Below are positions 4,812 through 45,012 of a DNA stretch of 64,000 bases, in pieces. Under the pieces are notes generated by a model. It was not told the origin of the DNA. It worked only from the letters and a program-made list of their open reading frames with translations, and made no database searches. The stretch is taken from NCBI RefSeq assembly GCF_048403405.1, contig NZ_CP183129.1, one strand, 5' to 3'. This DNA is from Escherichia coli. Its GTDB lineage: Bacteria > Pseudomonadota > Gammaproteobacteria > Enterobacterales > Enterobacteriaceae. Every line of letters begins with the position of its first letter. Within the stretch, counting starts at the first letter, position 1. Both the position numbers and the translations under genes were made by a program.

Positions 4812-7054
<2,243 letters not shown>

Positions 7055-37557: not shown

Positions 37558-38406
37558 ATGAACAACATATTAGGCTCATCAATTAATATGCCCTGTACAC
37601 TTTTCGAAACTATTACTTTATTCGATGATTTTTCTGCTGATGATATGCAATATGGGGATATGGAAGAACAAGATTTTCTCTCACTCGGCTTAAGCGACAT
37701 CTCTGCAAAAGTTGATCCTTACCGCCTCATTAAATACCATTTTCCTGGGCCGAATTCTACTTATGGTGCTTTTAGTGTTCCAACTTCTGGAACAAAAATA
37801 TCACAAAGTGAATGTATTGATATTTTATTTGCAGAAATGAAAGATCTGGCAAAAATGTTTTCCTTTTTTGGACAATACAAAACACTCATCCAGGATCTGA
37901 TTGATCATTTTAGATATGGAAATGGCAACAGTTTCCATAGCCAGGAATTGAACTTATCTTTTCATGAACGAATAAAAAAATATGATTATAATAGCCCAAT
38001 ACGTGTAATCAAAGAATGTATCGAAAATGATATTTCTTCAACACCTACGATAGGATACCGGCCTCTTCTCCTACAAAAGATTAAGATCGAATTACTTTCA
38101 TCAAGACTAAATAAATTCAATGATTTTAAAGATAATTTTAATGGCCTGGGAATCAGCATTCATGATATCTCAGCTCAAAAAATATCTCTTTTAAGTTTTC
38201 AAAAATACGCTATAGGATGGAGTGCAACAATTCATTTTGTAGCACAGGACCACTTCGGTCTTGATGTAACTGATATCAAAAACAAGACTTACAGCAAATA
38301 TAGATTTTTTCGCATATGGTTCTTTTTACAACGGCATAAAGACTTTGCTTTCAAACCTTTTTTCACCAATTTTAACACTATCGAAAGAATCGAAAATTAT
38401 CTATGA
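37558..38406 (+). CDS. Hypothetical cytoplasmic protein, 282 aa, in a low-GC two-gene module (possibly DUF3289-like; unverified)
   Basis: Clean ORF with AAGGAGA SD (37545-37551), acidic N-terminus, no signal peptide. Strongly AT-rich codon usage unlike the flanking rarD/corA. Confidence 0.6.
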   Translation: MNNILGSSINMPCTLFETITLFDDFSADDMQYGDMEEQDFLSLGLSDISAKVDPYRLIKYHFPGPNSTYGAFSVPTSGTKISQSECIDILFAEMKDLAKMFSFFGQYKTLIQDLIDHFRYGNGNSFHSQELNLSFHERIKKYDYNSPIRVIKECIENDISSTPTIGYRPLLLQKIKIELLSSRLNKFNDFKDNFNGLGISIHDISAQKISLLSFQKYAIGWSATIHFVAQDHFGLDVTDIKNKTYSKYRFFRIWFFLQRHKDFAFKPFFTNFNTIERIENYL

Positions 38407-38894
38407 AAAACAAACTCCAGAAAATTATATTATGTTTATTTCTTCTATGCTGCATCTATAATTTATGGACATTGCGTCCTGTACAGATTTTGTATACATA
38501 CTCTGATGCTGGCAATTCAGTCTTTCTGGTCGTTGATCATCTGCCATGGACTGACAGCGATAAAATAAATTGGTATCTGAAGCATCAGAATGAAATTAAA
38601 AATCAACATCCCCTACCAGAAGGTAGTTGGCATACCTGGTATGTCATTGATATCGGTAATGGCTTCACTGACTATAAAAAATATATCGAAGGGCCGTATG
38701 AAGATCTCTACTGTTTCCCGACAATTAAGAGCAATGATAATTGCATCGTGAAAAATTACTTAATGGTTATTAATGAATACCCTTATCGTAACACTCATAT
38801 TGGTATTAACGATTTTACTGAGTATCAATTAACACAAGAAAATAAAATAGAGCGAGTTTTCAATCCGCATGACTTTAAAAAAGACAATTTTTAG
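38403..38894 (+). CDS. Hypothetical membrane-anchored protein, 163 aa, translationally coupled to the upstream gene (possibly DUF943-like; unverified)
   Basis: Start overlaps the upstream stop (ATGA at 38403-38406). N-terminal hydrophobic segment IILCLFLLCCIYNLW, then a soluble domain. Same AT-rich composition. Confidence 0.6.
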   Translation: MKNKLQKIILCLFLLCCIYNLWTLRPVQILYTYSDAGNSVFLVVDHLPWTDSDKINWYLKHQNEIKNQHPLPEGSWHTWYVIDIGNGFTDYKKYIEGPYEDLYCFPTIKSNDNCIVKNYLMVINEYPYRNTHIGINDFTEYQLTQENKIERVFNPHDFKKDNF

Positions 38895-40255: not shown

Positions 40256-41020
40256 ATGGCGCATCGGCTACTCATTGGTAAAGGAATGATCACCTTGAAT
40301 CTCAAACGGATTTTTCTCACCCTCACCTTACTTCCCTTGTTTGCTGTTGCCGCTGATGATTGCGCACTCTCAGATCCGGCGCTGACCGTACAGGCGTATA
40401 TCGTTAATCCTCAAACAGAGCGGGTGAAAATGTACTGGCAAAAAGCCAATGGCGAAGCGTGGGGAACGTTACATGCTCTGCTGGCGGATATTAATAGTCA
40501 GGGTCAGGTGCAGATGGCGATGAACGGCGGCATCTATGATGAAAGCTATGCGCCGCTCGGTTTGTACATCGAAAACGGTCAGCAGAAGGTGGCGTTAAAT
40601 CTCGCTTCAGGTGAAGGGAATTTCTTTATTCGTCCTGGCGGCGTGTTTTATGTCGCGGGAGATAAAGTCGGCATCGTTCGTCTGGATGCCTTTAAAACCA
40701 GTAAAGAGATTCAGTTTGCGGTGCAGTCAGGGCCAATGTTGATGGAAAACGGCGTAATTAATCCGCGTATTCATCCCAACGTCGCCTCACGTAAAATTCG
40801 TAACGGTGTTGGGATTAATAAACAAGGGAACGCCGTGTTTTTGTTGAGCCAGCAGGCGACAAATTTTTATGATTTTGCCTGTTATGCCAAAGCGAAACTG
40901 AACGTTGAGCAGCTGCTTTATCTTGATGGCACAATTTCACATATGTATATGAAAGGCTGGGCAATCCCGTGGCAACGCTATCCTTTTGTTACCATGATTT
41001 CCGTCGAGCGGAAAGGTTAA
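40256..41020 (+). CDS. yigE: DUF2233-family protein YigE (signal-peptide protein)
   Basis: 254-aa ORF with a hydrophobic N-terminal region (IFLTLTLLPLFAVAADD); position next to corA matches yigE. Confidence 0.75.
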   Translation: MAHRLLIGKGMITLNLKRIFLTLTLLPLFAVAADDCALSDPALTVQAYIVNPQTERVKMYWQKANGEAWGTLHALLADINSQGQVQMAMNGGIYDESYAPLGLYIENGQQKVALNLASGEGNFFIRPGGVFYVAGDKVGIVRLDAFKTSKEIQFAVQSGPMLMENGVINPRIHPNVASRKIRNGVGINKQGNAVFLLSQQATNFYDFACYAKAKLNVEQLLYLDGTISHMYMKGWAIPWQRYPFVTMISVERKG

Positions 41021-41102
41021 GCATTGTACACTCGAGGAGGCCAGACAAACTGGGACTGGCTACACAGTTGGAAAATCATCAGATAAATGAAGGGAAACAA
41101 AA

Positions 41103-42005
41103 ATGAAAAAAACGCTCGCAACGTTATTTTTATTAACGTGTCTGGGATCATCATCCGCCTATGCAGATAACGCTTTGATTTTACAAACTGATTTTAGCCT
41201 GAAAGATGGTGCCGTCTCGGCGATGAAAGGGGTCGCATTCGGCGTTGACCATAATCTTAAAATCTTTGATTTAACACACGAAATTCCACCGTATAACATC
41301 TGGGAAGGCGCTTATCGCCTGTATCAGACTGCCAGTTACTGGCCGCAAGGTTCGGTGTTTGTTAGCGTGGTCGATCCGGGCGTAGGCACTGACCGTAAAT
41401 CGGTGGTGCTAAAAACCAAAAACGGTCAGTACTTCGTTTCACCAGATAACGGTACGCTCACTTTGGTGGCACAAACTCTGGGTATTGATAGCGTCCGGGA
41501 AATCGACGAAAAAGCTAACCGCCTGAAAGGTTCTGAAAAGTCATATACCTTCCACGGTCGTGACGTGTATGCCTACACCGGTGCGCGTCTGGCTTCCGGG
41601 GCGATTACGTTCGAACAGGTGGGGCCAGAGCTTCCTGCAAAAGTTGTCGAACTTTCTTATCAGAAAGCAAAAGCAACAAAAGGTGAAGTGAAGGGCAATA
41701 TCCCGATTCTCGATATTCAGTACGGCAACGTCTGGAGCAATATCAGCGACGAGTTGCTGAATCAGGCAGGAATCAAACTCAACGACACGTTGTGTGTGAC
41801 CATTTCCGAAGGTTCCCAGCAAAAATACGCAGGGAAAATGCCGTATGTCGCAAGCTTCGGCGATGTGCCGGAAGGCCAGCCGATGGTGTATCTGAACAGC
41901 TTATTGAATGTTTCCGTGGCGCTGAATATGGATAATTTTGCGCAGAAACATCAGGTTGCGTCTGGTGCTGACTGGAATATTGATGTGAAGAAGTGCGCTA
42001 AGTAA
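41103..42005 (+). CDS. DUF62-family protein (SAM hydroxide adenosyltransferase / fluorinase-chlorinase-like fold) with predicted signal peptide
   Basis: 300-aa ORF. N-terminus MKKTLATLFLLTCLGSSSAYA looks like a cleavable Sec signal; the mature part begins DNALILQTDFSLKDGAVSAMKGV, resembling the conserved N-terminal motif of SAM-hydrolase DUF62 proteins as I recall it. Confidence 0.65.
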   Translation: MKKTLATLFLLTCLGSSSAYADNALILQTDFSLKDGAVSAMKGVAFGVDHNLKIFDLTHEIPPYNIWEGAYRLYQTASYWPQGSVFVSVVDPGVGTDRKSVVLKTKNGQYFVSPDNGTLTLVAQTLGIDSVREIDEKANRLKGSEKSYTFHGRDVYAYTGARLASGAITFEQVGPELPAKVVELSYQKAKATKGEVKGNIPILDIQYGNVWSNISDELLNQAGIKLNDTLCVTISEGSQQKYAGKMPYVASFGDVPEGQPMVYLNSLLNVSVALNMDNFAQKHQVASGADWNIDVKKCAK

Positions 42006-42013
42006 GGTGCTGA

Positions 42014-42044
42014 TGCGGAATGCGGTGTGGCGCACCGCATTCCG
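42014..42044. terminator. Perfect 13-bp inverted repeat between the convergent DUF62 gene and uvrD (possible bidirectional terminator or REP-like element)
   Basis: GCGGAATGCGGTG-TGGCG-CACCGCATTCCGC; no clear T-tract. Confidence 0.4.
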
Positions 42045-42049
42045 CAACG

Positions 42050-44212
42050 TCACACCGTCTCCAACCGGGCGTAAGCCGCCACCAGCCATTTAATACCCTG
42101 GCCCTGGAACGCCACCTGCAAACGGCTATGCTCACCGCTGCCTTCCATATTGACGATGGTGCCTTCACCAAACTTAGCGTGGCGTACGCGCTGGCCGAGC
42201 TTGTAGCCGCTGTCGTTCTCGACCATCGGCGTACCCATCCGTTGATGGCTGACCGGGCGGCTTACCGTGGCGCGCAGGCGCACCTCTTCCACACACTCTT
42301 CCGGCAGCTCGCCGATAAAGCGCGATGGGCGATGGTAAACCTCTTTGCCATACAGACGGCGGGTTTCCGCGTAGGTCAGCGTCAGTTTCTGCATCGCGCG
42401 GGTTACGCCAACGTAGGCCAGACGGCGTTCTTCTTCCAGACGTCCGCCTTCATCCAGCGACATCTGGCTTGGGAACATGCCCTCTTCCATACCGACGATA
42501 AACACCTGCGGGAACTCCAGCCCTTTCGCCGAGTGTAGCGTCATCAACTGCACCGCATCCTGCCAGGTATCCGCCTGCCCCTCGCCCGCTTCCAGTGCCG
42601 CATGGGAGAGGAACGCCTGCAGCGGCATTAAATCTTCGTCTTCTTCGTTGTAGCTGAACTGGCGCGTCGCCGTTACCAGTTCCTCTAAGTTTTCGATACG
42701 CGTCTGGCCTTTTTCGCCTTTCTCCTGCTCGTACATGGTGCGCAGGCCGGAGTCTTTAATTACCCGGTCAGTCTGTACATGCAGCGGCATATCGGCAGTT
42801 TCCTGCGCTAAGGCGTCGATCAGTTCCATAAACCGCTGTAAGGCACTGGCAGCACGTCCGGCGAGGGCTTTTTCCTGCAACAGTTCACGACATGCCTGCC
42901 AGAGTGTTAACTGGCGATCGCGCGATGTCTGACGTACCACGTCCAGCGTCCGGTCACCAATACCCCGCGTTGGTGTATTCACCACGCGCTCAAAGGCCGC
43001 GTCGTCATTACGGTTGGCAATCAGGCGCAGATACGAGAGCGCATCTTTGATTTCCTGGCGTTCGAAGAATCGCATCCCGCCGTAAATACGGTACGGCATA
43101 CTTGCCTGTAACAGTGCTTCTTCCAGCACACGCGACTGGGCGTTGCTGCGGTAGAGAATGGCGCACTCGGCAAGCGCCCCGCCGTTGTCCTGCCAGGTTT
43201 TGATACGGTTAACCACAAAACGCGCTTCATCGAGTTCGTTAAAAGCGCAATAGAGGGAAATAGGCTCACCATCCGCGCCATCGGTCCACAGTTTTTTACC
43301 CAAACGCCCGTTGTTGTTTTCAATCAGGGCGTTCGCGGCGCTCAGAATATTGCTGGTAGAGCGGTAGTTCTGCTCCAGACGGATAGTTTCAGCACCGGGG
43401 AAATCATTGAGGAAACGCTGAATATTCTCCACCTGCGCTCCACGCCAGCCGTAGATTGACTGATCGTCATCGCCAACGATCATCACTTTGCCGGTATCGC
43501 CCGCCAGCAGGCGGATCCACGCATACTGAATGTTGTTGGTATCCTGGAATTCGTCCACCAGGATATTGGTAAACCGTTCGCGATAGTGCTGAAGGATATG
43601 CGGCTTGTTAAGCCACAACTCGTGAGCACGTAGCAGCAGCTCGGCGAAGTCCACCAGGCCCGCGCGGTCACACGCTTCCTGATACGCCTGATACACCTTC
43701 TGCCAGGTCTGCTCCACCGGATTACCGTAGCTTTGAATATGATGTGGACGCAGGCCTTCATCTTTCTGGCTGTTGATGTACCACATTGCCTGGCGCGGCG
43801 GCCACTGCTTCTCGTCGAGGTTCATCGCCTTGATTAGGCGTTTGAGCAGGCGTAGCTGGTCCTCGCTGTCGAGGATCTGAAAATCCTGCGGCAGATTGGC
43901 GTCCATATGGTGCGCACGCAGCAGACGGTGCGCCAGCCCGTGGAAGGTGCCGACCCACATGCCGCCCTGGCTGGTGCCCATCAGCTGCCCGATACGATGA
44001 CGCATCTCCGCCGCCGCTTTGTTGGTAAACGTTACCGCCATAATCGAATATGGCGAGCAGTTTTCCACGCTCATCAGCCAGGCGATACGGTGCACCAGTA
44101 CGCGCGTCTTACCACTGCCCGCGCCCGCCAGCACCAGAAGGTTGCTGCGTGGCGCGGCCACCGCTTCGCGCTGTTTGTCATTAAGGCTGTCGAGCAGGTA
44201 AGAAACGTCCAT
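42050..44212 (-). CDS. uvrD: DNA helicase II UvrD
   Basis: ORF open to 44401 (783 aa); canonical 720-aa UvrD starts at MDVSYLLDSLNDKQREAVAAP (ATG at 44210-44212). Walker A motif GAGSGKT. Confidence 0.95.
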   Translation of the reverse strand: MDVSYLLDSLNDKQREAVAAPRSNLLVLAGAGSGKTRVLVHRIAWLMSVENCSPYSIMAVTFTNKAAAEMRHRIGQLMGTSQGGMWVGTFHGLAHRLLRAHHMDANLPQDFQILDSEDQLRLLKRLIKAMNLDEKQWPPRQAMWYINSQKDEGLRPHHIQSYGNPVEQTWQKVYQAYQEACDRAGLVDFAELLLRAHELWLNKPHILQHYRERFTNILVDEFQDTNNIQYAWIRLLAGDTGKVMIVGDDDQSIYGWRGAQVENIQRFLNDFPGAETIRLEQNYRSTSNILSAANALIENNNGRLGKKLWTDGADGEPISLYCAFNELDEARFVVNRIKTWQDNGGALAECAILYRSNAQSRVLEEALLQASMPYRIYGGMRFFERQEIKDALSYLRLIANRNDDAAFERVVNTPTRGIGDRTLDVVRQTSRDRQLTLWQACRELLQEKALAGRAASALQRFMELIDALAQETADMPLHVQTDRVIKDSGLRTMYEQEKGEKGQTRIENLEELVTATRQFSYNEEDEDLMPLQAFLSHAALEAGEGQADTWQDAVQLMTLHSAKGLEFPQVFIVGMEEGMFPSQMSLDEGGRLEEERRLAYVGVTRAMQKLTLTYAETRRLYGKEVYHRPSRFIGELPEECVEEVRLRATVSRPVSHQRMGTPMVENDSGYKLGQRVRHAKFGEGTIVNMEGSGEHSRLQVAFQGQGIKWLVAAYARLETV

Positions 44213-44270
44213 TGGCACCGCCGCGTAAAAATAGGTTGGGCGGAGAAGCGCAACGCCCTCCGCCAAAAAG

Positions 44271-44286
44271 CTGGGTATATATACAG
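44271..44286 (-). promoter_or_regulatory. LexA (SOS) box upstream of uvrD
   Basis: CTGGGTATATATACAG (CTG-N10-CAG with AT-rich spacer) about 60 nt upstream of the uvrD start; matches the uvrD SOS operator as I recall it. Confidence 0.7.
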
Positions 44287-44295
44287 ATTTGCTGA

Positions 44296-45012
44296 TTATA
44301 TCAGCGAGGTCAGAGATGCCAACCGGGAAATTTCCAGATGCGGGAGTAAACGGCTGTCCCAGGTTTGCATCAGATCGCCATTTTCCGGTCTGATCCAACA
44401 AGCCTGCATTCCGCTGCGAATTGCCCCACCCACGTCAGTGGTGAGATCGTCCCCAACATGTAAGATCTCGCCGATCGGCACGTTGAGTTTTTCCGCAGCC
44501 AGAAAGTACATATCGCTGAACGGTTTTGAGCGCCCGTGCGGGCCAGCGCGCAGCACAAACTCAAAATAATCCCCCAAACCAAACAGTTCCGGCTGGGCGT
44601 TACCGTTGGTGATCGCCACCAGCGGCCATTTCTTCGCCAGCTGTTTTAAGGTGTCGTGGGTTTGCTGCGGGACATCGATTCGGCTGCGCCATTTGGCAAA
44701 GTTGATCATTGCCGCGTGTGCGCCTGCACTGGCTTCTTCGGCACTCAGCCCGGCGTCGAGCATGGCTTGTTCAATCGAACGAAAACGCCAGCGCGTCACG
44801 TCGTGATAAATCTCGGGTTCCGCTTCCCGTACCGCCTGGCGCAGGCGTTGCAGATCTTCATTCTGGAAGCTGCGCAGCGCCGGATGATAATTTTGCACAA
44901 AGGTAAGCGCCTCTCGCTCGGTGCGCAAAATCACCGGACGGTTATCGTAAAGGGTATCATCCAGGTCAAAGGTGAGCGCCGAGATGCGCCCCAAAGGCCG
45001 GTAAAAACGCAT
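44296..45012 (-). CDS. yigB: HAD-family phosphatase YigB
   Basis: 238-aa ORF with HAD motif I ([12 protein letters not shown]); last gene of the dapF-yigA-xerC-yigB operon. Confidence 0.85.

Follow-up and report, generated by a model that had tools for sequence, protein, structure and literature searches.

The DUF62 gene between yigE and uvrD

The window, that is, the whole 64,000-nt stretch of E. coli DNA that was analyzed, contains on its plus strand an intact ORF of 300 codons plus stop (41103 to 42005), which begins at the first possible start codon past an in-frame stop. It is flanked by yigE (40256 to 41020, plus strand) and uvrD (42050 to 44401, minus strand), in agreement with the placement given in a preliminary description of this DNA. 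A Shine-Dalgarno-like AAGGGA (41090 to 41095, plus strand) was read 7 nt 5' of the ATG, within a 26-nt upstream stretch that can still be aligned to the leader of the Helicobacter pylori gene HP0709.

Pfam analysis revealed two domains, SAM_HAT_N (PF01887; i-E 4.9e-53; residues 26 to 174; model positions 2 to 145 of 145; 41178 to 41624, plus strand) and SAM_HAT_C (PF20257; i-E 3.9e-18; residues 198 to 291; 41694 to 41975, plus strand). The first contains the ribose-binding Asp30 and the triad Asp91/Arg98/His151. The second, a beta-barrel domain also seen in the conservation table and by Foldseek, has Asp204, Asn209, Asn213, Phe252, and Asn275 as conserved residues. Together with the fold, these domains show that the protein belongs to the DUF62/SAM_HAT family, and the very strong PF01887 profile match confirmed what the preliminary description had proposed. 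RefSeq/PGAP labels an identical sequence "SAM hydrolase/SAM-dependent halogenase family protein." The dN/dS ratio was 0.03 to 0.06 in comparisons with other Escherichia copies and the H. pylori copy, demonstrating strong purifying selection. According to the ORF list, Pfam, RefSeq/PGAP, and dN/dS, 41103 to 42005 is a complete coding sequence for a DUF62 protein of the exported type described below.

K-12 has a 146-bp yigE-uvrD spacer in place of the gene, as seen in its annotation and by pairwise alignment, so that the gene is indeed extra relative to K-12, as had been supposed. The presence/absence segment extends from 41021 to 42030 (the right boundary is approximate), and K-12 has the distal part of its spacer there instead. 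Between yigE and uvrD, the gene is present in 2,413 of 5,426 complete E. coli genomes (44%), and the order corA-yigE-gene-uvrD is kept, with approximately 94% nucleotide identity, in two divergent Escherichia lineages. The gene was thus inherited vertically within Escherichia and lost in K-12-like strains. It is also found in Shigella, Aeromonas, Pasteurellaceae, and thousands of H. pylori sequences.

Plasmid carriage was ruled out, since the E. coli "plasmid" matches were 4.9-Mb records. Phage carriage was rejected as well; the simplest view of the Helicobacter "phage" match is that a prophage record takes in the neighboring chromosomal gene. A copy with 80.6% identity in "E. coli HS-02" was considered as a donor for horizontal transfer and discarded as uninformative: it is a frameshifted pseudogene call, and since yigF in the same record is also interrupted by a stop, assembly errors are the probable cause.

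A promoter scan of the 82-bp spacer between yigE and the DUF62 gene found no convincing sigma-70 promoter, the sole nearby match being inside yigE, and a terminator scan found no terminator between the two genes. Cotranscription with yigE is possible. The convergent stops of the DUF62 gene and uvrD are separated by a perfect 13-bp inverted repeat (GCGGAATGCGGTG-TGGCG-CACCGCATTCCGC; 42015 to 42045), read from the sequence, which may form a hairpin at the end of both transcripts. It was not called by the terminator scan because no T-run follows it.

Predicted export signal and the exported clade

Residues 1 to 21 (MKKTLATLFLLTCLGSSSAYA; 41103 to 41165, plus strand) were predicted to be a Sec (SPase I) signal peptide that would be cleaved at AYA|DN. 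The N terminus consists of MKK, TLATLFLLTCLG, and SSSAYA, followed by DNALILQTDF, and shows all features by which Sec/SPase I signals were recognized: a positive n-region (MKK), an h-region of 7 to 15 residues (here approximately 12), a polar c-region, and small residues at -3 and -1 (Ala at both). A further filter, crude by design (it asked for a positive n-region, a hydrophobic 9-mer, small residues at -3 and -1, and no later transmembrane segment), was passed by only 3 of the 53 long ORFs of the window, namely, pldA, a DUF943 ORF, and the DUF62 gene. A Tat twin-arginine motif (S/T-R-R-x-F-L-K) is absent from residues 1 to 21, which have no Arg, and Tat export was ruled out. Export as a lipoprotein by SPase II was also rejected, since the stretch ending in Cys13 reads L-L-T-C, with Thr at -1, instead of the lipobox [LVI][ASTVI][GAS]C.

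The first approximately 22 residues are an extra N-terminal extension, since the solved cytoplasmic DUF62 structures all align only from query residues 23 to 29 onward, corresponding to homologue residues 2 to 15. In the AlphaFold2 monomer model of the 300-aa protein (pLDDT 92.8; pTM 0.86), the fold is confident from residue 24 onward, and residues 1 to 20 (pLDDT approximately 56) form one short helix (residues 5 to 13). We then compared 83 orthologues with 55 to 98% identity, among which six phyla were identified by name (Proteobacteria, Bacteroidota, Verrucomicrobiota, Synergistota, Fusobacteriota, and Planctomycetota), in addition to Thermotoga-type sequences and Tissierellia MAGs. All 83 have a hydrophobic N-terminal extension of 18 to 40 aa ahead of a conserved ALVxQTDFG core. 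The sequence of the extension diverges, and small -3/-1 residues recur just ahead of the core (AYA, VHA, ATA, AAA, FA, ALA). In line with this, dN was 0.217 in the signal segment versus 0.04 in the mature part, with the hydrophobic character kept. The Sec-type signal ending in SSSAYA, noticed in the preliminary description, thus has its n-, h-, and c-region features and appears to be kept in all orthologues examined. Conservation of the predicted signal provides good support for export of the E. coli protein, during which residues 1 to 21 would be cleaved off.

The mature protein has only two cysteines, Cys231 (41793 to 41795) and Cys298 (41994 to 41996), spanning 41793 to 41996 on the plus strand. 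Both are present in 37 of the 83 orthologues, both are missing in 46, and none has a single one. This perfect covariation suggests that Cys231 and Cys298 form a periplasmic disulfide. Cysteines in the mature domains otherwise number 0 to 2 in the exported clade versus 0 to 10 in the cytoplasmic type.

Every biochemically characterized DUF62 enzyme is cytoplasmic, being either a SAM/(R)-SAM hydrolase or a halogenase (bioRxiv 10.1101/2025.08.29.672840; PMC12120602). This precedent would favor an (R)-SAM repair hydrolase of the usual cytoplasmic kind, with a nonfunctional or miscalled N-terminal segment. We consider this very improbable. Met1 is the first start past the stop, and no other start is available; with the conserved core opening at residue 24, translation has to include the extension. 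Moreover, its character is kept in every orthologue across several phyla despite the sequence divergence, the cysteine pair covaries, and the exported clade is monophyletic against relatives without the extension.

It is also conceivable that the N-terminal segment is an uncleaved signal anchor or carries a lipid, in which case the enzyme would be tethered at the periplasmic face of the inner membrane. Cys13 lies within the h-region, and lipobox-like N termini occur in 17 of the nearest 150 clusters (50% identity), so that membrane tethering exists elsewhere in the clade. However, a hydrophobic core of just approximately 12 residues is short for a transmembrane helix, the recurrence of small -3/-1 residues ahead of the core points to cleavage, and LLTC violates the lipobox rule, by which position -1 must be Gly, Ala, or Ser. 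Even H. pylori and Helicobacter acinonychis do not keep Cys13 throughout, since it is missing in the latter and in one H. pylori copy. Tethering is therefore unlikely, and a cleavable Sec signal remains our preferred reading.

Among the same 150 clusters, approximately 71 have signal- or lipoprotein-type N termini and approximately 59 have none. The statement that DUF62 enzymes are normally cytoplasmic thus holds for the solved and characterized enzymes but fails for the family at large, and the rarity that it implied was overstated: with export signals in about half of these 150 clusters, the E. coli protein is typical of a large exported clade and no one-off. Our search of full-text literature found no description of exported DUF62 proteins, although a mention in Kornfuehrer et al. 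2020 is possible, and none of the relationship between the E. coli and H. pylori genes.

Active site and candidate substrates

A Foldseek search of the PDB returned only DUF62, chlorinase, or fluorinase chains among its top 40 matches (target-normalized TM 0.78 to 0.89; best E = 4e-32), with a target-normalized TM of 0.88 to 2zbu and SalL. The best PDB sequence match was also 2zbu (E 1.3e-43). Asp91 (41373 to 41375), Arg98 (41394 to 41396), and His151 (41553 to 41555; all plus strand) align column for column with Asp68, Arg75, and His127 of the characterized PH0463, and the alignment also covers the Arg89 position that is mutated in the MJ1651 R89A structure. This answered the question of the catalytic Asp/His/Arg triad raised in the preliminary description: judged from the alignment, the water-activating triad is intact. 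In the exported clade, D30, D91, and R98 are conserved in 83/83 and H151 in 78/83 sequences, and N116, D204, N209, and N213 are likewise conserved.

SalL (chlorinase) and FlA (fluorinase) belong to the same superfamily and share the fold, SalL chains being among the best structural matches. As the criterion for a halogenase, we used the halide-pocket residues Tyr70/Gly131 of SalL and Thr80/Ser158 of FlA. SalL Tyr70 corresponds to Asp91 of the E. coli protein, Tyr-Gly131 to His151-Gly152, and a SalL Thr to Arg98; these residues thus make up a hydrolase triad and not a halogenase pocket. In addition, the score against the fluorinase family TIGR04507 was 83.9 bits, far from the cutoff of 400. Halogenase function was ruled out by this score and the pocket residues.

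DUF62 membership combined with a secretion signal makes it probable that the protein degrades an adenosyl compound and does so outside the cytoplasm. SAM hydroxide adenosyltransferases are homotrimers with active sites at the subunit interfaces and convert SAM and water to adenosine and L-methionine. The reading that we favor, with our confidence about evenly divided, is that the E. coli protein is a catalytically competent, Sec-exported periplasmic SAM (or (R)-SAM) hydrolase that frees adenosine and methionine for uptake. Made with a cleavable signal peptide, the enzyme would work in the periplasm, where water activated by Asp91/Arg98/His151 would attack C5' of an adenosyl-sulfonium substrate by the SN2 chemistry known for the family. 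The most likely substrate would be S-adenosylmethionine from the environment or a host, as well as its (R)-sulfonium epimer, which persists and is biologically inert. Adenosine and L-methionine would then be taken up by the ordinary nucleoside and methionine importers, making the enzyme a stand-alone extracytoplasmic scavenging hydrolase. Both the substrate and this nutritional role are our inferences.

Two findings count against this reading: Phe replaces the catalytic His151 in 5 of the 83 orthologues, and 56% of the complete E. coli genomes, along with K-12, do without the gene. Furthermore, substrate availability is an assumption, given that no periplasmic SAM pool is known and that extracellular SAM is chemically labile.

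The lack of an obvious extracytoplasmic SAM pool also speaks for an alternative in which the protein is exported but has as its substrate a different adenosine derivative, substituted at 5' and bearing a good leaving group. This could be decarboxylated SAM, a further adenosyl-sulfonium or -selenonium compound, a 5'-halo-5'-deoxyadenosine from other microbes, or some as yet unknown adenosyl metabolite from a host or from soil. The protein scored far under the cutoffs of both NCBIfam "(R)-S-adenosyl-L-methionine hydrolase" equivalogs, NF058624 (131.5 bits versus 350) and NF053629 (116.9 versus 470), and by those criteria does not share a functional family with the characterized enzymes, though it is related. 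W67, N209, W211, Y148/T149, and the "NSLL" at 265 to 268 are invariant in the exported clade and variable in cytoplasmic-type relatives, suggesting that the binding pocket is tuned uniformly across the clade and may be a different one. SalL has an Arg aligned with L267, but this Arg is also missing in the Thermotoga maritima DUF62 protein, and the position is therefore not diagnostic. Against another substrate, all known adenosine-positioning and water-activating residues are kept. We regard this alternative as rather unlikely, though of real weight.

The gene neighborhoods bear on both readings. We clustered the flanking ORFs of 81 loci and annotated 30 neighbors with NCBIfam. No conserved neighbor or transporter was found across lineages in the 81 loci, apart from within-genus synteny (Aeromonas), and this lack of a partner counts against the scavenging reading. 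Clusters that spanned genera consisted of antisense shadow ORFs or of families found everywhere (DEAD-box helicase and LysR). Operon-like neighbors were sporadic: nucleobase permeases of the NCS2 (L063 and L065) and NCS1 (L055) types, an amidohydrolase (L049), deoB (L013, L016, and L037), TonB-dependent receptors (L044, L066, L063, and L065), and RNase T2 (eight Aeromonas loci). The sparse permease, deoB, RNase T2, and TonB receptor neighbors are a weak hint of scavenging, while the TonB-dependent receptors adjoining the gene in four loci could also hint at a scarce, specifically imported other substrate. Pfam analysis of four longer homologues revealed fusions to Y_phosphatase3, an alpha/beta hydrolase, Peptidase_M15, and Emfourin, which share no theme and do not help in identifying the substrate. 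Neither neighbors nor fusions thus point to an alternative to SAM, and hydrolysis of SAM or (R)-SAM remains the reading that we prefer.

HP0709 of H. pylori and comparison with known enzymes

The closest homologue outside Escherichia, an orthologue or xenologue, is H. pylori HP0709 (jhp0648; 300 aa), with approximately 90% amino acid and 85% nucleotide identity. In a local alignment to an H. pylori locus, DNA-level homology of approximately 85% covers 41077 to 42011 (plus strand), from 26 nt 5' of the ATG to 6 nt 3' of the stop, and identities at the three codon positions are 0.91, 0.96, and 0.67. Like the E. coli protein, HP0709 has its own predicted signal peptide (MKKTILALFLSTCIGLSSVHA|DN), the same triad, and the same cysteine pair; its gene surroundings, in contrast, are unrelated to those in E. 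coli, with rsmH/HP0708 on one side and homA on the other. Its GC content is 0.43, against a background of 0.38. HP0709 is nested among gammaproteobacterial sequences, which indicates an old horizontal transfer behind the E. coli and H. pylori copies, and it has been kept under purifying selection in H. pylori.

In the literature, HP0709 appears only as a gastric cancer GWAS hit, a serology antigen, and an entry in an outer membrane vesicle (OMV) list. The OMV and serology lists are uninformative on its location because cytoplasmic proteins are on the same lists. Given the hydrolase triad and the lack of a halogenase pocket, the labels "adenosyl-chloride synthase" and "salL" attached to the H. 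pylori copy are probably wrong. H. pylori needs exogenous methionine. It is also a purine auxotroph and imports adenosine through NupC/HP1180 (PMC13328217). In biofilms of strain SS1, a "salL/adenosyl-chloride synthase" gene, presumed to be HP0709, was upregulated 2.87-fold, metI 2.18-fold, and asparaginase 2.11-fold (PMC6212823). Like the sporadic gene neighbors, the retention of the gene in this purine auxotroph and the biofilm data are a weak, circumstantial hint of scavenging.

We tentatively propose, while holding the proposal to be doubtful as a whole, that exported DUF62 proteins are widespread, unrecognized extracytoplasmic SAM/(R)-SAM hydrolases with which bacteria obtain adenosine and methionine from SAM that hosts or dead cells release, and that an Escherichia-like enterobacterium was the source of one of these genes, which passed to the ancestor of H. 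pylori and was retained there. In the current view, DUF62 enzymes are "repair" hydrolases by which the cytoplasm is cleared of the inactive (R)-epimer of SAM. A branch located outside the cytoplasm could not do this, and of the nearest family clusters about half belong to the exported branch, which is represented in 44% of the complete E. coli genomes. If extracellular SAM is hydrolyzed, this would be a new scavenging route for methionine and purines, and free SAM or its long-lived (R)-epimer would be an ecologically relevant extracellular metabolite. HP0709 would gain a testable function, linking an orphan gastric cancer GWAS and serology hit to nutrient acquisition, and the misleading database labels "acetolactate synthase" and "adenosyl-chloride synthase" would be corrected.

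With PH0463, MJ1651, the Salinispora DUF62 protein, and T. maritima 2zbu, the E. coli protein shares both Pfam domains, the fold (target-normalized TM 0.84 to 0.89), the Asp-Arg-His triad, and the adenosine-binding residues, at 30 to 35% identity. In those cytoplasmic enzymes, the chain begins right with the catalytic core and the substrate is the SAM of the cell itself, whereas the E. coli protein has a 21-residue predicted export signal, a covarying cysteine pair, and clade-specific invariant pocket residues. In logic, the proposed role resembles that of UshA, CpdB, and RNase I of E. coli and of AnsB and gamma-glutamyltranspeptidase of H. pylori, soluble exported hydrolases that turn nonimportable compounds into importable pieces. 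The likeness is one of logic only, since these periplasmic scavenging hydrolases differ from the DUF62 protein in fold and chemistry.

Predicted export signal and the exported clade

The DUF62 gene is an unbroken ORF of 300 codons (41103..42005, +). Its ATG is the earliest possible start downstream of an in-frame stop in the ORF list, and a Shine-Dalgarno-like AAGGGA was read from the sequence 7 nt upstream of it. The Pfam models SAM_HAT_N (PF01887; residues 26-174, 4.9e-53) and SAM_HAT_C (PF20257; residues 198-291, 3.9e-18) matched the product, confirming the family assignment of the preliminary description.

That description had also proposed a secretion signal. Residues 1-21 consist of MKK, TLATLFLLTCLG, and SSSAYA, followed by DNALILQTDF. 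The n-region is positively charged, the hydrophobic core is 12 residues long, and the polar c-region has Ala at -3 and -1; cleavage is predicted between AYA and D. A lipobox was ruled out (Thr occupies -1 in L-L-T-C, and Cys13 varies), as was a Tat signal (no arginine in residues 1-21). A conservative home-made signal filter was passed by 3 of the 53 long ORFs in the window, namely pldA, the DUF943 ORF, and the DUF62 gene. Alignments to solved cytoplasmic homologues all begin at query residues 23-29, opposite homologue residues 2-15, and the N-terminal segment is therefore added onto the catalytic core. In an AlphaFold2 model built from an alignment of 38 sequences (mean pLDDT, 92.8; pTM, 0.86), this segment has a pLDDT of ~56 and forms one short helix outside the confidently folded core, which starts at residue 24. 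With Met1 as the sole start upstream of the conserved core, which begins at residue 24, an alternative start would not avoid the extension.

For comparison, one genome per bacterial or archaeal species was scanned, yielding 80 loci with relatives of 55-98% identity; 83 sequences from these and four Helicobacter pylori loci were aligned. All 83 orthologues carry an 18- to 40-residue extension with a hydrophobic core directly before the conserved ALVxQTDFG strand, mostly ending in small residues (ATA, AAA, FA, ALA, AQ). Together with the n/h/c layout ending in AYA, this upholds the predicted secretion signal. Among the hosts are Proteobacteria, Bacteroidota (Chitinophaga and relatives), Verrucomicrobiota, Synergistota, Fusobacteriota, Planctomycetota, and Fervidobacterium/Thermotogota and Tissierellia MAGs. 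Tissierellia and other monoderms would place the product fully outside the cell. In a neighbour-joining tree, the exported sequences form one clade apart from N-terminally unextended relatives. Between E. coli and H. pylori, dN is 0.217 in the signal peptide versus 0.04 in the mature part, and the n/h/c character is kept.

The mature protein has two cysteines, Cys231 and Cys298. Both are present in 37 orthologues and both are missing in 46, while none has a single one; otherwise, mature domains contain 0-2 cysteines in the exported clade and 0-10 in cytoplasmic-type relatives. A structural disulfide formed in an oxidising compartment would produce such a pattern, although the pattern represents few independent events, because the 37 carriers belong mostly to one proteobacterial subclade. 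We conclude that the DUF62 gene very probably encodes an exported enzyme.

According to the preliminary description, DUF62 enzymes are normally cytoplasmic. Its observation and interpretation stand overall, but the rarity of export was overstated: by an approximate, heuristic count, ~71 of the 150 best 50%-identity cluster representatives have signal- or lipoprotein-like N termini and ~59 have none, the rest being incomplete or unclear. The gene itself is not new, since it is annotated in thousands of genomes. No description of exported DUF62 proteins was found in the searchable full-text literature, and a large monophyletic exported branch in a family thought cytoplasmic appears to be undescribed.

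The yigE-uvrD locus in Escherichia

As originally described, the gene lies between yigE (40256..41020, +), with corA farther upstream, and the convergent uvrD (42050..44401, -). The space between the two stop codons is taken up by a perfect 13-bp inverted repeat with a 5-nt loop (42015-42045), at which the terminator scan made no call because neither strand has a T-run after it. The yigE-DUF62 spacer is 82 bp long, and neither a promoter nor a terminator was called in it, so the two genes may be cotranscribed. The annotated yigE start places MAHRLLIGKG ahead of the signal-peptide-like MITLNLKRIFLTLTLLPLFAVAADD. The internal start Met11 would yield a standard signal peptide, and export is therefore probable for YigE (phosphodiester glycosidase family) as well.

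The gene is indeed extra relative to K-12, which has a 146-bp yigE-uvrD spacer instead. The window diverges from K-12 directly past the yigE stop and rejoins it near the hairpin, of which K-12 keeps only the region of the distal arm; nothing in the K-12 spacer could be recognised as left over from the DUF62 ORF. By eye, this spacer (2322-2467 of the K-12 locus) contains a REP-like palindromic element (GCCGGATGCGGCGTAAACGCCCTATCCGGCC). A second strain-variable gene lies nearby: a 163-aa ORF adjoining corA (38403-38894, +), with a very hydrophobic N terminus (MKNKLQKIILCLFLLCCIYNLW...), occupies a position annotated as a DUF943 family protein in CFT073 and as yigF (DUF2628) in K-12.

PGAP annotates the gene as "SAM hydrolase/SAM-dependent halogenase family protein". 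Of 5426 complete E. coli genomes, 2413 carry it, nearly always as a single copy and on the chromosome. K-12, O104:H4, and many other strains lack it, while E. coli TUM14771 has the identical 2.2-kb yigE-DUF62-uvrD arrangement. The order corA-yigE-DUF62-uvrD is kept in two divergent Escherichia lineages, where the gene has diverged as much as its flanks (~94% nucleotide identity; dS, 0.25-0.28). From this synteny and matched divergence, we conclude that the gene is old, has been inherited vertically at this locus, and was lost from K-12-like strains. The one-genome-per-species scan gave no match in the Salmonella, Klebsiella, E. albertii, and E. fergusonii representatives. The lone E. coli match below 90% identity (80.6%; strain HS-02, NZ_CP172818.1, locus L087) carries a pseudogene annotation, with a frameshift and an internal stop. 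Since yigF of that record is likewise interrupted by a stop, sequencing or assembly errors are a more probable explanation than a divergent allele. Plasmid or phage carriage was rejected, as there was no true plasmid or phage record. Three PLSDB "plasmids" with the gene (NZ_CP134663.1, NZ_CP141089.1, and NZ_AP026896.1) are 4.9 Mb each and presumably misfiled chromosomes.

The Helicobacter pylori homologue HP0709

Among 5.8 billion sequences, the nearest proteins beyond Escherichia and Shigella are those of H. pylori and H. acinonychis (300 aa, ~90% identical). One cluster alone comprises 2579 members, some of them on complete 1.6- to 1.7-Mb chromosomes. The H. pylori copy, HP0709/jhp0648 (6001-6903 in the H. 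pylori loci L002-L005), is flanked by rsmH and a small ORF on one side and by homA on the other, with an HD-domain gene and rpoN downstream. Its DNA is 84.5-84.8% identical to the DUF62 gene (0.91/0.96/0.67 by codon position; dS, 0.85; dN/dS, 0.06), and alignable DNA ends 26 nt before the ATG on one side and 6 nt after the stop on the other (41077-42011). The GC content of HP0709 is 0.43 versus 0.38 for its locus, and that of the DUF62 gene is 0.476 versus 0.515 for the window.

The next relatives are found in Aeromonas (72-76%) and in Edwardsiella, Pasteurellaceae, Thorsellia, and some Neisseriales/Burkholderiales MAGs (65-75%); the remaining 50%-identity clusters reach at most 57% over full length. 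The tree places H. pylori as sister to Escherichia within a mostly gammaproteobacterial group, and representatives of other Helicobacter species gave no match in the one-genome-per-species scan. The simplest reading would be an old transfer from an Escherichia-like enterobacterium to the ancestor of H. pylori and H. acinonychis, where the gene then ameliorated in part and came under strong purifying selection. No account of this relationship was found in the searchable full-text literature, and HP0709 as an enterobacterial xenologue appears undescribed.

HP0709 has surfaced in other contexts. Its junction with homA is a reported prophage-insertion hotspot (PMC11321410), and a bacterial GWAS linked a nonsynonymous SNP at nt 145 (Asp/Asn, residue 49) to gastric cancer (PMC6090961). 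It belongs to an 11-antibody serology panel for intestinal metaplasia, as relayed in PMC11394471, and is among OMV protein lists (PMC8756444). It is mislabelled as "adenosyl-chloride synthase", "salL", or "acetolactate synthase".

Possible role and comparison with characterised enzymes

The chemistry of the family is known from PH0463 of Pyrococcus horikoshii and from bacterial and archaeal (R)-SAM hydrolases: a nucleophile attacks C5' of SAM, displacing L-methionine and yielding adenosine (bioRxiv 10.1101/2025.08.29.672840; PMC12120602). Because the active site is intact and its residues hardly vary across the exported clade, a similar reaction on an adenosyl-sulfonium substrate would be the default expectation. 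Outside the cytoplasm, the enzyme could not police the cell's own SAM. Its substrate could be SAM or the inert (R)-epimer supplied by the host, the diet, or lysed cells; cleavage would release adenosine and methionine, both importable.

Scavenging would be the most economical role, although its support is circumstantial. Scattered operon-like neighbours of exported DUF62 genes include nucleobase permeases, an amidohydrolase, deoB, RNase T2, and TonB-dependent receptors. The latter directly adjoin the gene in four loci, two from Opitutus/Verrucomicrobia MAGs (L063 and L065), where an NCS2 xanthine-permease-like gene is also adjacent, and two from Chitinophagaceae (L044 and L066), hinting at scarce-substrate import and purine uptake. 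H. pylori needs exogenous methionine. It is also auxotrophic for purines and imports adenosine by way of NupC/HP1180 (PMC13328217), and in SS1 biofilm a "salL/adenosyl-chloride synthase" gene, presumably HP0709, was upregulated 2.87-fold with metI and asparaginase (PMC6212823).

Several points count against scavenging. Domain fusions are heterogeneous: Fervidobacterium MAGs (L072, 3971-5890; L079) encode a 639-aa fusion of a duplicated SAM_HAT_C with Y_phosphatase3, and longer homologues (P0161, P0204, and P0239) carry an alpha/beta hydrolase (672 aa), a Peptidase_M15 D-Ala-D-Ala dipeptidase (482 aa), or an emfourin-like domain (437 aa). No conserved partner gene was found near exported DUF62 genes, and we know of no documented extracytoplasmic SAM pool. 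Furthermore, both NCBIfam "(R)-SAM hydrolase" equivalogs scored below their curated cutoffs (131.5 versus 350 bits and 116.9 versus 470 bits); the product is related to the characterised enzymes but not certified as their functional equivalent. Pocket residues W67, N209, W211, and NSLL 265-268, which are invariant specifically in the exported clade, could point to another substrate. On balance, we give a periplasmic SAM/(R)-SAM hydrolase serving scavenging an even chance.

The closest solved structure by sequence is Thermotoga maritima DUF62 (2zbu, 1.3e-43), followed by the chlorinases ClA1 and SalL, PH0463, and MJ1651. In a Foldseek search of the PDB with the model, the first 40 matches comprise DUF62, chlorinase, and fluorinase chains only (target-normalised TM, 0.78-0.89). 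A halogenase function was ruled out by the score of the fluorinase model TIGR04507 (83.9 bits versus a cutoff of 400) and by pocket residues unlike those of SalL, with Asp91 in place of its halide-pocket Tyr70, His151 in place of a Tyr, and Arg98 in place of a Thr. Because of these replacements and the low score, the product is placed, as judged from sequence, in the hydrolase rather than the halogenase branch. Arg98 also aligns with the residue mutated in the MJ1651 structure deposited as R89A. The catalytic triad whose conservation was in question is present: Asp91/Arg98/His151 align exactly with Asp68/Arg75/His127 of PH0463, the biochemically characterised SAM hydroxide adenosyltransferase with which the DUF62 gene product shares it.
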